Below, one piece after another: positions 1-4,334 of a DNA stretch of 64,000 bases. Position 1 is the first letter of the stretch, and the number at the start of each line of letters is the position of its first letter. The position numbers were made by a program, and so were the translations under genes. A model generated the notes under the pieces. That model ran no database searches. It saw nothing but the letters and a program-made list of their open reading frames with translations, and was not told where the DNA came from. This DNA is from Escherichia phage ECML-134: the sequence record JX128259. One strand, 5' to 3'.

Positions 1-379
1 TTCCGATAAGCTGTTCAAATTCTGCTTGGAAATCTTTACTGCTGGCAGATTCATTAAGACGTGTACCGTTAACGGTGATTTCAAAAACGTTCGGTTTTTG
101 TCCTCTTTTGATATAGTACTTTTTCTCATCATATTCCATCCACAGTTCAACTAAAAGTTCTTTCTTATTTGTGCTGTTTATTAATTGGCCTTTCTTTACA
201 TCACGAAATGGCTTGCCAAAAAGCCCAAATGTGATGGCTTCTAACATAGTAGACTTACCACCGCCATTTCGTCCAGTAATAAGAGTTTTTTGAACCTTAT
301 CTAATTGAATGTCAACTCCATTTTGACCAACTGACATTATATTTTTATATTTTACTCTATTAAGTTTAAATGATTTCAT
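1..379 (-). CDS. 46: Recombination endonuclease subunit gp46 (Rad50/SbcC-like ATPase), N-terminal part; gene continues past window start
   Basis: Reverse-strand translation from ATG at 377-379 reads MKSFKLNRVKYKNIMSVGQNGVDIQLDKVQKTLITGRNGGGKST (Walker A); matches recalled T4 gp46 N-terminus; adjacent to gene 47. Confidence 0.85.
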   Translation of the reverse strand, partial: MKSFKLNRVKYKNIMSVGQNGVDIQLDKVQKTLITGRNGGGKSTMLEAITFGLFGKPFRDVKKGQLINSTNKKELLVELWMEYDEKKYYIKRGQKPNVFEITVNGTRLNESASSKDFQAEFEQLIG

Positions 380-394
380 TTTGTATCCAATTGT

Positions 395-1249
395 TCACAA
401 TGAAGAAAATTCTTTAACTAAAGCCTGTAATGAAGCCTCTATTGGATATCCATTCTTAACTAACATTTTCCTAAACATCACATGTTTAGGACGATTATAT
501 GATATCCACAATTCATACAATTTATCTTTATTATCCCAATGATAGCCTTTTCGTCTAGATGCTATATGAGCTTTTCTAATCTCCGGATTTTTCCAACTAG
601 CAGCTACTGAATTTGATATAGCTATTTTATATTCAGGTTTTGATAAAGCAGCACGAACAGCCTTTTGGTGTTTAATTTTATTTTCTTCGTTATTAAACCA
701 TTCCCTTGAAGCCATTGAAATTTTTTGTTTTGTTTTAAAATTATTTAATCTTTCTTTGTTATCTTTCCTATTTTTTGCTACTGAAAAATATTTTAATGCC
801 CTTTCTCTAGCAGCATTTCTATTTTGCGGATTTGAATAATACTGTTGAAGCCTTTTTGATATTGTGTCACTTACATCTCGTTTTATAAAACTATATTCAG
901 CAGCTATTAAATCAACTTCGGCTAAAGATAAATTTTTATATGTTTTTCCTGACATCATTCTATTTAAAGCATTTAGCATTTTTCCATTTTTACCTTTTGC
1001 TAATAAGAAGTGTGCTTTAAAATGATTAAAATGACTTAAATTAACTAAATTCCATGTAGATTTTAAATATTCAGGAAATATTGATTTAGGAAGCACGTGG
1101 TGTGCTTCCGTTTTACCTGGAGTTTTAACAGTTGAATTCATAGAAATAAAATTAATGTAAGACTTGGCGTCTTCTTCACTCAACGCTAATTTTTCAACTA
1201 ATTCCTTTATTAAAAATTCATCATTAATGTCAAGTTTAAAATTCTTCAC
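395..1249 (-). CDS. Free-standing HNH homing endonuclease (Mob-like) with C-terminal basic DNA-binding region
   Basis: 284 aa ORF; HNH core EAHHVLPKS...NLVNLSHFNHFKAH as in T4 Mob-type endonucleases; lysine/arginine-rich C-terminal half; lies between genes 46 and 47. Confidence 0.7.
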   Translation of the reverse strand: MKNFKLDINDEFLIKELVEKLALSEEDAKSYINFISMNSTVKTPGKTEAHHVLPKSIFPEYLKSTWNLVNLSHFNHFKAHFLLAKGKNGKMLNALNRMMSGKTYKNLSLAEVDLIAAEYSFIKRDVSDTISKRLQQYYSNPQNRNAARERALKYFSVAKNRKDNKERLNNFKTKQKISMASREWFNNEENKIKHQKAVRAALSKPEYKIAISNSVAASWKNPEIRKAHIASRRKGYHWDNKDKLYELWISYNRPKHVMFRKMLVKNGYPIEASLQALVKEFSSL

Positions 1250-1461
1250 AAAAGATTCCTTTTAATGTATCTTTTAGACCATTCTATCATATCATCATAA
1301 TCTAAAAAGTATTCATCAAATTCAGCCATGCAAACAACACCTTGTGCTGTTTTTGATGTAATATAAATTATTCCAACATATCTAGAATCTTCTTCGGTAT
1401 AATCAATGTTTGCTATGAATTCATCATTAATGTCAAATGTCGAAAACTTCACAGTATGCAT
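1246..1461 (-). CDS. Hypothetical small protein (46.1-like position); likely start at internal Met of the 1246..1509 ORF
   Basis: ORF track 1246..1509; N-terminal motif FDINDEF shared with the HNH ORF; 4-nt overlap with HNH start. Confidence 0.4.
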   Translation of the reverse strand: MHTVKFSTFDINDEFIANIDYTEEDSRYVGIIYITSKTAQGVVCMAEFDEYFLDYDDMIEWSKRYIKRNLL

Positions 1462-1696
1462 CCTTAATACAAGATACAGCCATATCTCGTAATGATTTAG
1501 GTGTGTCATTATCTAAAATGTTGAAGTTAAAAGATATAGCCCAGTCAGTGCAAACTGTAACCTTTTTAATATAATTATCTTCAACTTCTAGTGGTTCAAA
1601 CCAGTATTCAATAATTTCTTTATGACCAATATCATCTTTTACTTCGCATTCAAAATGCTGACTCATCATAACATTTTTAAATTCATCAAAAGTCAT
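1433..1696 (-). CDS. Hypothetical protein (46.2-like position)
   Basis: 87 aa ORF immediately downstream of gene 47 with 4-nt overlap at its start; acidic, Cys-containing. Confidence 0.45.
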   Translation of the reverse strand: MTFDEFKNVMMSQHFECEVKDDIGHKEIIEYWFEPLEVEDNYIKKVTVCTDWAISFNFNILDNDTPKSLRDMAVSCIKDAYCEVFDI

Positions 1697-2712
1697 TGTG
1701 TTGCCTCTACATATAGCTGATTTGCATATTGAATAAGTGCTTCACGGTCAGAATCAGTGATGTCTGGAATTGCATTAATGTATTCTTCCATCAATGTCTG
1801 AAGCGATTGAACTTCAACCTCTTCGCTGTCATCTGACTCGACAGAGTTATCAATCTTTGACACAACTCGTAATGAATGCACAACTTTCTCTAGTTCAGAT
1901 TCGAACTTCGTCAGATTTTTGTCTACTTCAGTTACTATAACACGTACTGATAGATTTGTAAAATCTTTATAGTCAATTTTTCCTTTAAATGGATAATGAA
2001 TTCTACGATGCCAGGTAGTGTTGTTTGGAATAAATTCCATTCGTTCTGTTTCTGTATCAAACATCCAGAACCCACGAGGGTCATTCTCGTCACCTGCAGT
2101 TAGTGTCCATGGTGTCCCAATATATCTGACGTTAGCAGCCTCAGAGATAGTATGGAAGTGACCAGACCACACCTCTTTATAAGTCTTAAGGAAATCAGGT
2201 TCAAGACCGTGAGATTTCATTCCTTTATAAAAATAAAATCCATTCAGTTCCCAGTGACCAACACAAAAAGAAGCAGATGAAGTTTTGATGTGCTCAAGAA
2301 TTTCACCAGTATTTTCTTCACACATCCAAGGAATTAAATCAATCAAACATCCGTCAAAATCTACTGTAGTAGGCTTATCATATACTTTAACATTAGGATA
2401 TTTAGCCAAAAGCTCAGTAGAAGCATTTGGAGTTAAAGTATTTTTAAAGTGCATATCATGGTTTCCTACAACAGTATGCAGGGTAATACCAGCATCATCA
2501 AGCATTTGAACTATTTCACGAGCAAACTCCATAGTTTTATGCGTGATTGCTTTTCGCACATCAAAAATATCGCCGTATTGAATCCAGGTAGTAATTCCAT
2601 TTTTCTTAGAATATTCTATCGCTTGCTTAATTCCATCCAACTGAATGGATTGAACCCACTCATCATCGGCTTTAACGCCTAGATGCCAATCACCTAAATT
2701 TAAAATTTTCAT
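1693..2712 (-). CDS. 47: Recombination endonuclease subunit gp47 (Mre11/SbcD-like phosphoesterase)
   Basis: 339 aa; calcineurin-like phosphoesterase motifs (GDWHLG, GDIFD, GNHD, GHFH); length and sequence match recalled T4 gp47. Confidence 0.9.
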   Translation of the reverse strand: MKILNLGDWHLGVKADDEWVQSIQLDGIKQAIEYSKKNGITTWIQYGDIFDVRKAITHKTMEFAREIVQMLDDAGITLHTVVGNHDMHFKNTLTPNASTELLAKYPNVKVYDKPTTVDFDGCLIDLIPWMCEENTGEILEHIKTSSASFCVGHWELNGFYFYKGMKSHGLEPDFLKTYKEVWSGHFHTISEAANVRYIGTPWTLTAGDENDPRGFWMFDTETERMEFIPNNTTWHRRIHYPFKGKIDYKDFTNLSVRVIVTEVDKNLTKFESELEKVVHSLRVVSKIDNSVESDDSEEVEVQSLQTLMEEYINAIPDITDSDREALIQYANQLYVEATQ

Positions 2713-2849
2713 ATATCAAGAACCGTCATTGAAATGCAAAATAAAATTATTGAAATAAATCCATCTGGAGTGCTAAAGAACCCAATCCAACATGCTCTAG
2801 TGAATAGATAAAATGCAAGAAAAAGTATCACATATCCAAGAAATATCAT
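2709..2849 (-). CDS. Small hydrophobic peptide (46 aa), translationally coupled to gene 47 (ATGA overlap)
   Basis: Own reverse-strand reading: MIFLGYVILFLAFYLFTRACWIGFFSTPDGFISIILFCISMTVLDI; below the ORF-track size cutoff; stop overlaps the gene 47 ATG. Confidence 0.3.
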   Translation of the reverse strand: MIFLGYVILFLAFYLFTRACWIGFFSTPDGFISIILFCISMTVLDI

Positions 2850-2888
2850 TATATCAAACTCCGTATAAAGCTAAAGGGCCGAAGCCCT

Positions 2889-4091
2889 TTATTTTGTAAT
2901 AATGTCAAACTGTTCTTTAAAGCAGAAGCTTGAATCTTGATGCTGATACAAAAATTCATATGCTTTTTCTCGCTCACGGTCATAAAGAGCTCGGTCAGAT
3001 GACAGTTCTTTAATACGCTCGAATGTTGATTCCATGTCATTTTCATCAAACCAAATGATACCGCTATCATGCGAGGTCAAAGGAGTATTATCAACACGGA
3101 ATTTTAAATTTTCGCCAGTAGATTTCCAAAATACCGGAATTGTTCCACAAGCACCAAGCTCGAGATGAGTATATTCTAAAGAACGTTGTAGATATTTTTT
3201 GTCCAACTTACTCAACTGATAACCAAATCCGGATTTACTCATGCGTTCAAGCATTTCGCTATTTACATAACGGTCAAGAATTTGCGTTGGCAAATTAGGA
3301 GCAATTTTAATTTGGTCTACTTGATGAAGACGATAATACTCATATGGAATTCCTTTTTCTTTAATAGGAATGAACGCTGGAGAACGTTCCAGACCTTCCA
3401 TAATAGTACTTAGTCCTGCAGGTTTAAGATGTTTTTCGTGAAAATCAAACATCTGATAAAAGCCTTTCCATGTAGTAGTACGACCAATCCAACGGTTGAT
3501 ATTCATGTTAATTTCAGAAACATCTTTCCAGTAGGTTGATCTAACCTTCGCAATATCCATAGGAGGCTGAAAGTTATATACTGTCGGCGCTTCTTCAATA
3601 TCATCAAACAAAGAAACTGTTTCAGGATACCATTCTTTCATCAGAACTTTATTAAAATCGCCATTATCAGAATGACTAAAAATAACATCAGCTCGACGAA
3701 CAGTTTCTTCTAATCCCAAATTTCGACGCAAAGAAAGAGAAGAATGGTCATGTTGATAAACTACAACACGAACCGAAGGTTTAATGTTATCAATAATTTT
3801 TTTATAGTTATTAATAGTGTCTTCTTCAACTGAAGTAGCAGGAACTGAATTGATAATTAGAATATCACAATCATTTACCAGCTTAAGTGTTTTATCGTAT
3901 TCTTTTGCCAATAAAACCGGAATTGAAAATGATTTATAATCATGCGCACAGTTACGAGTAAATGATTTATCTTTAGCATAAACCAAAGTTACTTCATGAC
4001 CATTTTTAATAAACCAATCACGCTGCTCAAGAGAAAATTTAGTTACACCGCAACCTTCAAGACCTCGAGCCATAAAAATACATACTTTCAT
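2889..4091 (-). CDS. a-gt: DNA alpha-glucosyltransferase
   Basis: 400 aa; sequence (CIFMARGLEGCGVTKFSLEQRDWFIKNGHEVTLVYAKDKSF...) matches recalled T4 a-gt; correct position relative to 47 and 55. Confidence 0.9.
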   Translation of the reverse strand: MKVCIFMARGLEGCGVTKFSLEQRDWFIKNGHEVTLVYAKDKSFTRNCAHDYKSFSIPVLLAKEYDKTLKLVNDCDILIINSVPATSVEEDTINNYKKIIDNIKPSVRVVVYQHDHSSLSLRRNLGLEETVRRADVIFSHSDNGDFNKVLMKEWYPETVSLFDDIEEAPTVYNFQPPMDIAKVRSTYWKDVSEINMNINRWIGRTTTWKGFYQMFDFHEKHLKPAGLSTIMEGLERSPAFIPIKEKGIPYEYYRLHQVDQIKIAPNLPTQILDRYVNSEMLERMSKSGFGYQLSKLDKKYLQRSLEYTHLELGACGTIPVFWKSTGENLKFRVDNTPLTSHDSGIIWFDENDMESTFERIKELSSDRALYDREREKAYEFLYQHQDSSFCFKEQFDIITK

Positions 4092-4334
4092 TTAATATCC
4101 TCATTGTTTTGGTTTATTTTACCAAAAATTTATAAAGCAATATAGGAGCCGAAGCTCCTATCCGCATAATACGCCATACAAAGGCTCGTTAGAGCTTCTA
4201 AATTTTATACACTTATATGTTATAGTTCCTTCTGCTTTAGCTTTATCATGAGACTCTTTAAAGCGTCTCATCATTTCCTCTTTAGAGGAACGAATTTTAT
4301 TATAATCTATTTCAGAAGTCTGGGTGTTCATCTT

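Follow-up and report, generated by a model that had tools for sequence, protein, structure and literature searches.

Escherichia phage ECML-134 is a T6-like Tequatrovirus, and the window analysed here is a stretch of 64,000 nucleotides (nt) from its sequence record JX128259. Near one end of this window lies an open reading frame (ORF) of 284 amino acids (395..1249, minus strand), which is probably a free-standing, promoter-less Mob-type HNH homing endonuclease gene inserted in frame after codon 6 of the recombination gene 46. The region lies wholly on the minus strand, as do all of its features described below, and transcription runs from high to low coordinates through gene 47, gene 46.2, gene 46.1, the 284-amino acid ORF and gene 46. 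The ORF begins with a GTG codon at 1249..1247 and ends with its own TGA at 397..395, 15 nt before the gene 46 ATG, and is free-standing in that sense. A first-pass annotation, made from the letters of the DNA, had placed it between genes 46 and 47; it does lie inside the 46–47 interval, but it is flanked by 46.1 and 46 and does not adjoin gene 47. RefSeq already labels the gene "homing endonuclease", and this is a known kind of mobile element and no new kind of system, but the anatomy of its junctions is undescribed in the literature searched.

Insertion boundaries and the exchange of gene 46 starts

Alignment with T-even relatives, which had been proposed as a check, defined the boundaries of the insertion, with T4 and ELT1 (MZ892903.1) having the empty site and T6, T2 and PhiZZ23 the filled one. 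By comparison with the empty sites of T4 and ELT1, the insert is 870 nt long (362..1231), although its ends may slide by 9 nt, TTTAAACTT being repeated at both. In T4, the 46.1 stop codon overlaps the GTG start of gene 46, and the sequence reads ...AAAAGGAATCTTTTGTGAAGAATTTTAAACTT followed directly by AATAGAGTAAAATAT. The window is identical to T4 base for base from the end of 46.1 through GTGAAGAATTTTAAACTT; the insert, read from 1231 to 362, then opens with GACATTAATGATGAATTT and closes with TTGTGAACAATTGGATACAAAATGAAATCATTTAAACTT (running to ...CAAAATGAAATCATTTAAACTT just before the T4-like sequence), after which AATAGAGTAAAATAT resumes. The empty site of ELT1 has flanks nearly identical to those of the window, with 2/370 differences in gene 46 and 2/247 in 46.1. 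Elsewhere in the ELT1 record (1046-1280), the 46.2 ORF is truncated, being annotated at 1046-1153 and followed by an unannotated gap.

An imperfect direct repeat of 18 nt flanks the insert. The left copy, GTGAAGAATTTTAAACTT at 1232..1249, corresponds in the T4 alignment to the ancestral gene 46 codons 1–6 (MKNFKL), which now serve as codons 1–6 of the HNH ORF, while the right copy, ATGAAATCATTTAAACTT at 362..379, represents the same six codons of gene 46 in recoded form. Thirteen of the 18 positions agree between the two copies, including 9 nt (TTTAAACTT) without a mismatch, while the start codon (GTG versus ATG) and the codons for residues 2 and 3 differ. A target-site duplication of the transposon type was considered and rejected, as the flanking 18-mers are only 13/18 alike and have different codons and start codons. 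Judged by their sequences, they seem to stem from the gene 46 starts of two genomes that had diverged.

Since the insertion is in frame after codon 6, the ribosome-binding site of gene 46, its GTG and its GTGA overlap are used in situ by the nuclease, whose start thus consists of the resident AAGGA, 7 nt and the GTG, with GTGA overlapping the TGA stop of 46.1. The replacement start of gene 46 lies behind the nuclease TGA, where a 15-nt spacer (ACAATTGGATACAAA, 380..394) holds a weak GGA Shine–Dalgarno-like element, 6 nt ahead of the new ATG, and is followed by ATG AAA TCA TTT AAA CTT (MKSFKL). The duplicated start is therefore at the 3' end of the cassette, as a second, diverged copy, and gene 46 is kept whole as a result. 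Its 5' part (1..379), identified from the T6 RefSeq record and the T4 gene 46 alignment as encoding gp46, the Rad50/SbcC-like recombination nuclease subunit, starts with the ATG at 379..377 and gives the N-terminus MKSFKLNRVKYKN; the gene is intact except for Asn3Ser, and the cassette codons are recoded synonymously or near-synonymously. The first-pass annotation had said that MKNFKL resembles the start of gp46, and the identity is stronger still, as these codons are the T4 gene 46 start region base for base. Its further claim that the element had copied a neighbour's translation-initiation region does not stand, because the cassette uses the resident gene 46 ribosome-binding site and GTG where they were.

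The endonuclease and its family

The predicted Mob-like HNH endonuclease of 284 amino acids was borne out by several matches. The ORF is matched end to end by PHROG 655, annotated "homing endonuclease" (E 2.7e-45), and T4 MobD aligns with residues 47-281 at 30% identity over 243 amino acids (BLASTP, E 2e-17). The MobD alignment takes in a C-terminal HW(D/Q)...LY.LWI..NRPK...GYP block, so that the protein has an N-terminal nuclease domain and a distinct, presumably DNA-binding, C-terminal region, as do the T4 Mob proteins. A profile built from eight homologues matched the HNH core of T4 MobE in hhalign with a probability of 95.4% (E 1.9e-8). The catalytic core, as placed by the homologue alignment and hhalign, comprises residues 47-84 (TEAHHVLPKSIFPEYLKSTWNLVNLSHFNHFKAHFLLA, 998..1111), and H50, H51, N67, H76 and H80 are invariant across the eight homologues. 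The family assignment is based on sequence, that is, on PHROGs, MobD and MobE, and the structure models described below were not used for it. A large protein database gave only six clusters for this protein, too few for a deep profile; the cluster of the intact 284-amino acid protein has 85 member sequences.

Other kinds of mobile insertion were considered. An intein was rejected on account of the stop codon at 397..395, the new start at 379 and the lack of an intein domain by Pfam, and a search of window positions 1-3000 gave no group I or group II intron or other relevant Rfam match.

A 19-nt repeat shared with gene 46.1

The nuclease gene has a second borrowed segment directly after the first. 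A 19-nt patch, TTGACATTAATGATGAATT on the minus strand (1215..1233), makes up HNH codons 6–12 (L-DINDEF), and a repeat search found the same 19 nt in codons 6–12 of 46.1 (F-DINDEF, 1418..1436), where it is also present in T4, which lacks the HNH gene. The 46.1 copy additionally contains the 46.2 stop codon, TGA at 1435..1433. In the whole 64-kb window, the 19-mer AATTCATCATTAATGTCAA occurs exactly twice, at 1215-1233 and 1418-1436, whereas shuffled sequences would be expected to give 0.03 matches and none of 100 shuffles reached two. The repeat extends to 45 nt at 78% identity (1206-1250 versus 1409-1453, spacing 203), and this pair is the top direct repeat within 1-3000.

Gene 46.1 (1246..1452; DUF5487, 68 amino acids, identified by Pfam and the T4 and T6 RefSeq records) starts with a GTG at 1452, and the spacing of 203 nt equals the distance between the two GTG starts, which is why the patch falls in codons 6–12 of both ORFs and why both 19-mers stand in the same register to a shared GTGAAG start. 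The first 12 codons of the nuclease gene are thus composed of gene 46 and 46.1 sequence. In these respects the first-pass annotation was right, having described the first codons as a mosaic, DINDEF as common to the adjacent small ORF, and further partial identity beyond a repeat of about 19 nt; the repeat is real and not due to chance, but the coordinates that had been given for it, 1217-1235 and 1417-1435, were off by 1–2 nt.

The motif is native to 46.1, because it occurs in T4 46.1 without any HNH gene and because a related LDDEF occurs in the 83%-diverged phage P479, and it was therefore likely the nuclease gene that received its copy from 46.1. In T2, the patch differs by a single silent change, C to T. 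The patch is an event separate from the takeover of the gene 46 start and is dispensable for explaining translation initiation. The idea that 46.1 might itself be a nuclease remnant was rejected, since the BLASTP E value of 5e-4 is driven by the first 12 residues only, and 46.1 and the HNH protein have no significant similarity past residue 12.

It is very improbable that the 19-nt identity has no mechanistic meaning and arose by chance, by convergence in codon usage, or as the native N-terminus of the nuclease. The region is AT-rich, the two proteins are not significantly similar beyond their first 12 residues, and a 30%-identical HNH homologue at another locus starts with MDINF, encoded by ATGGATATTAAT, so that part of DINDEF may be native to the nuclease. 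Chance was nevertheless rejected on the expected and shuffled counts given above; the restriction to two sites in 64 kb, the common register to GTGAAG at a distance of 203 nt and the presence of the 19 nt in 46.1 of HNH-less phages, with a related motif in P479, all speak against such a reading, as do the different N-termini of the homologues that lie next to gene 46 at 42-43% identity. The MDINF start could also be accommodated by copying, in that a pre-existing microhomology may have aided the formation of the patch.

Promoters and translation

The cassette reads as promoter-less, since window positions 1-3000 contain neither a T4 late promoter (TATAAATA) nor a MotA-type middle promoter. A MotA-like TGCTTTA within the HNH gene (650..644) fails the middle-promoter pattern, and scans for sigma-70 promoters and terminators gave results at chance level. 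Over the window as a whole, the middle-promoter pattern TGCTTYA-N11-13-TANNNT is enriched (11 matches versus 2.5 expected), with the nearest match at 4116-4139 (minus), just upstream of a-gt. RNA folding is unremarkable at both starts, with z-scores of -2.4 at the HNH start region and +0.9 at the gene 46 start, and the start-proximal hairpin of the former lies in sequence identical to T4. From the arrangement of the overlapping codons, HNH translation is presumably coupled to that of 46.1, as gene 46 translation is in T4. Many free-standing homing endonuclease genes are likewise promoter-less and overlap an upstream stop codon; MobE has UAAUGA, and MobA is predicted to begin at GUG (PMC2988022). 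The GTG start and the coupling to 46.1 should hold the level of the nuclease low.

Distribution and origin of the cassette

The insertion had been expected to be polymorphic among T-even relatives, and this proved to be the case. A 401-nt probe spanning the T4 junction was unbroken in 446/516 phage records, so that T4 and about 446 of the 516 lack the cassette, and it was split in the other 70. Seventy records cover the whole of window 1-2800, and 69 have a complete right junction; about 70 of the 516 records, all alike in their junctions, thus have the insert, which is frequent in T6-like phages. Over window 1-2800, identity to the window is 99.8% for Escherichia phage vB_EcoM_SCS4 and 98.5% for T6. 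Presence and absence are thus sporadic among close relatives, and the empty site can be defined in T4 and ELT1.

The window, T6, T2 and PhiZZ23 agree exactly at both junctions, and one ancestral event, later spread by recombination, would therefore account for the carriers examined; the junction sequences point to a single origin of the insertion. Nucleotide diversity among these four carriers comes to 0.9% for the HNH gene, as against 4.3% for gene 47 and 3.0% for 46.2, which speaks for a young element. The carriers occur on two gene 47 haplotypes, each of which is also found in HNH-less phages, so that the cassette has passed from one background to another, taking only short flanks along. 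For T2 and T6, Petrov et al. 2010 (PMC2993671, Table 5) counted one endonuclease gene each as "other HNH", and this is probably the present gene. In the record of Citrobacter phage PhiZZ23 (NC_054901.1, 337-960), a second HNH endonuclease gene is annotated directly upstream of gene 47, in the place that 47.1 has in T4, so that PhiZZ23 has two endonuclease genes flanking or interrupting its 46/47 operon.

Two copies are frameshifted, that of T2 by a 2-nt deletion (window 638-639) and that of Ac3, an RB51-like phage, by a 1-nt deletion (window 726), which is decay as expected in the life cycle of homing endonucleases. The record of Enterobacteria phage Ac3 (OK040907.1) is unusual in another respect. 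Upstream of the HNH start it is about 97-99% identical to the window, but from locus 1801 to at least 3417 (window 1249 down to 1) identity falls to 64-82%; the drop begins exactly at the HNH start codon (GTG to GTT) and continues through the nuclease ORF and gene 46. The changes are synonymous and introduce E. coli-style codons (e.g., CTG, GGC and CGT), and the segment looks engineered or recoded, or like a chimeric assembly, and unlike natural divergence.

The frameshifted copies raise the question of whether the ORF is no longer mobile, being either an inactive relic kept for the translation signals of gene 46 or a nuclease domesticated against co-infecting phages or for another role. In T2 and Ac3 such copies persist with gene 46 intact, so the cassette is tolerated and retained without the full-length protein; its clean loss needs a precise deletion, which leaves it partly locked in, and the 5-11 nucleotide differences between the copies compared are too few to show purifying selection. 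On the other side, the ORF in the window is intact with all catalytic residues present, the intact 284-amino acid cluster has its 85 members, members of the family in different genera keep 42-43% identity at this locus, and the cassette is found on different flanking haplotypes. Loss of mobility is quite unlikely on this evidence.

Homologues at the same locus and gene 46 alleles

The nearest non-identical homologues, with 42-43% protein identity, are found in Escherichia phage F2 and Salmonella phage SEA1 (Gelderlandvirus). Both are directly upstream of gene 46 and overlap its start, although that of F2 follows a 46.2-like gene and that of SEA1 follows gene 47 directly; neither phage has a 46.1, and each homologue has a different N-terminus. 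The junction between the HNH gene and gene 46 in SEA1, CGGATATTAAATG, resembles the 15-nt spacer region of the window, and the SEA1 junction CGGATATTAAATGAAAACCTTTAAACTTAATAGAGTAAAATAT is close to the right junction of the window, TGGATACAAAATGAAATCATTTAAACTTAATAGAGTAAAATAT. These findings suggest that the nuclease gene carries the following gene 46 start along with it as a unit, and that the family targets the 5' end of gene 46.

HNH-less phages have two gene 46 5' alleles, a T4-type (67 exact records) and an RB3-type (360 records), which show 12 differences within nt 8-54 past the junction and few in the next 300 nt. This divergent allele patch (window about 316-362) adjoins the endonuclease insertion site. 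The survey of junctions also showed that GGAGTT at 314..319, where T4 has GGGATT (Ile to Val), is present in all 69 complete HNH-bearing junctions and in about three HNH-less records, e.g., ELT1. The latter weaken the candidacy of GGAGTT as a strict immunity marker.

These homologues and alleles bear on the possibility that the polarity is reversed, with the HNH gene ancestral at gene 46 and the T4-type junction formed by precise deletion between the duplicated gene 46 starts. The same position of the divergent homologues in F2 and SEA1 would make the linkage to gene 46 old, and SEA1 has 24 nt (TTTAAACTTAATAGAGTAAAATAT) identical with the T4-type gene 46 start, from which the common RB3-type allele differs. 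The flanking repeat, 9 nt exact and 13/18 overall, would permit a precise loss that regenerates the T4 sequence exactly, and ELT1, which is HNH-less yet bears the GGAGTT marker, could be a revertant and not a naive site. As an origin for the empty site in general, however, loss is unlikely, because the N-terminus of the nuclease consists of gene 46 codons 1–6 still attached to the 46.1 stop, for which a T4-type 46.1/46 junction must have existed beforehand. The 360 records with the RB3-type allele have no trace of a cassette, diversity in the HNH gene is low compared with gene 47, and T4 retains the ancestral Ile codon ATT common to RB3 and SEA1 (ATC in F2), whereas the HNH-bearing phages have a derived GTT. 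Loss is possible for some empty sites such as that of ELT1.

With loss given that limited role, insertion of a homing endonuclease gene into the start of gene 46 is the preferred explanation, and several further observations weigh against it. Searches of the ORF against Pfam, NCBIfam and PDB sequences gave no HNH match. AlphaFold2 models made from shallow alignments of only 5-6 sequences reached a mean predicted local distance difference test score of 57.5 for the full length and 68.2 for residues 1-110, and Foldseek searches of both against the PDB, a structure comparison directed at the beta-beta-alpha-metal fold, gave no match at E <= 0.001. The literature searched contains no report of a cleavage site, nicking activity or biased inheritance for this protein, and the record counts above are inflated by GenBank/RefSeq duplicates. 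With regard to the 19-nt patch, a chimeric query of 293 nt (46.1 start plus HNH body) gave only two-piece matches 203 nt apart, so that the best 30 of the 69 phage records covering the query include no donor with a 46.1(1-12)::HNH fusion, and an exact 31-mer from the HNH 5' end had no match in IMG/VR or metagenome contigs. A 29-mer from gene 46 found only two contigs in IMG/VR, both HNH-less.

Proposed mechanism and comparison with known systems

On the analogy of its family, the HNH protein would nick or cleave alleles that lack the HNH gene, within or close to the 5' end of gene 46, as the T4 Mob enzymes nick their targets (PMC2988022), and repair from the filled allele would copy the cassette together with short flanks, by intronless homing with co-conversion. 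For the original insertion, the left junction may have come from one-sided, illegitimate, microhomology-mediated repair; T4 is known to repair double-strand breaks in this one-sided, illegitimate way at microhomologies (PMC2988022). In the donor, the HNH gene may already have stood immediately ahead of gene 46, with the right side recombining homologously, and a homologous right side from such a donor would explain the duplicated gene 46 start. The 19-nt patch may have been copied from 46.1, 203 nt upstream, by template switching or short-patch conversion; alternatively, it may have come from a donor whose HNH gene was joined to codon 12 of 46.1.

The nearest parallels are T4 MobD and MobE, with which the ORF shares the HNH core (xxHHxxP...N...H...AH), the free-standing and promoter-less state and a start that overlaps an upstream stop. 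It differs from them in its location at 46.1/46, where T4 has no endonuclease gene, in being only 30% identical, and in having its first 12 codons borrowed from neighbouring genes. The cases of T4 mobA, which splits the topoisomerase gene (39/60), and Aeh1 mobE, which splits nrdA, also have an HNH gene within an essential frame in a viable phage (PMC2988022). There, the host gene is cut into two polypeptides that must reassemble (PMC2988022), whereas here the six codons upstream of the insert are duplicated, gene 46 stays a single ORF, and the upstream copy of the six codons becomes the N-terminus of the nuclease.

As in the intronless homing of SegF and SegG, which involves co-conversion and marker exclusion (PMC2988022), a free-standing gene lies beside an essential gene, its presence or absence is polymorphic in T-evens, and a short flanking haplotype is co-inherited, in this case the recoded start and GGAGTT 45-50 nt downstream of the junction. 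SegF and SegG differ in being GIY-YIG enzymes with mapped cleavage sites, and their genes are intergenic and not within a start region (PMC2988022). The acquisition of T4 introns, with one homologous junction and the other at microhomology (Parker et al. 1999, summarised in PMC2988022), is also similar, and the window would fit one-sided repair, being homologous towards gene 46 and having a microhomology of TT or 19 nt at the left junction; Parker et al. 1999 used engineered substrates (PMC2988022), whereas the mechanism proposed for the window is drawn from junction sequences. Inteins, too, are in-frame inserts in essential replication or recombination genes, but the present insert ends in a stop and supplies a new start, with no protein splicing and no Hint domain.

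Neighbouring genes and annotation

Upstream of 46.1 are gene 46.2 (1433..1696; T4_Y03C family, 87 amino acids, from the ORF listing and Pfam) and gene 47 (1693..2712; gp47, the Mre11/SbcD-like subunit, from the ORF listing and the T4 and T6 RefSeq records). In the T6 RefSeq record NC_054907.1 (1933-2196, corresponding to window 1433-1696) and in other T6 records, 46.2 is named "XhlA hemolysin". By Pfam it belongs to the T4_Y03C family only, with function unknown (E 2.4e-42), and the hemolysin name looks like an annotation carry-over.

The ORF of 87 amino acids listed at 1246..1509 is in truth the 68-amino acid gene 46.1, as the DUF5487 match in Pfam sets in only at residue 20 of the long ORF, a GTG, and the T4 and T6 RefSeq records agree on the GTG at 1452. 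The AR1 record annotates 46.1 as the long 87-amino acid ORF. In the AR1, RB3 and ime09 records (locus 1843), the annotated gene 46 begins only at codon 14, an internal ATG (ATGTCAGT), which misses the GTG start overlapping the 46.1 stop.

In T4, mobB (795 nt) lies between a-gt and a-gt.2, whereas in the window a-gt (2889..4091) is followed by 66 nt (4092-4157) and then by an a-gt.2-like ORF (4158..4331). The window thus lacks mobB but has the HNH gene adjacent to gene 46.

Implications

The cassette is a precisely defined natural case of a selfish nuclease gene inside the start of an essential gene without damage to it, in which the 870-nt insert is all that separates the filled site from the empty one. 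It also corrects annotation, since the start of the nuclease is the old start of gene 46 and several records begin gene 46 at an internal ATG. Crosses of T6 or ECML-134 with T4 or ELT1, or use of the T2 frameshift, would be an easy system in which to map a new Mob-type target near 46/47, and the same system could probe translational coupling from a GTG start.

More tentatively, the cassette could be an instance of a general "start-swapping" strategy that lets free-standing homing endonuclease genes enter the 5' end of an essential ORF without harm. Fusion to the resident initiation region would both tie the expression of the nuclease to the translational coupling of the host gene and limit it thereby, and the spare, recoded gene 46 start would also destroy or alter the nuclease's own target. 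The 19-nt patch would then record a template switch that took place in the course of one-sided illegitimate break repair, and the substitutions crowded into the first ~55 nt of gene 46 between the T4-type and RB3-type alleles of HNH-less phages may reflect an arms race for the cleavage site.

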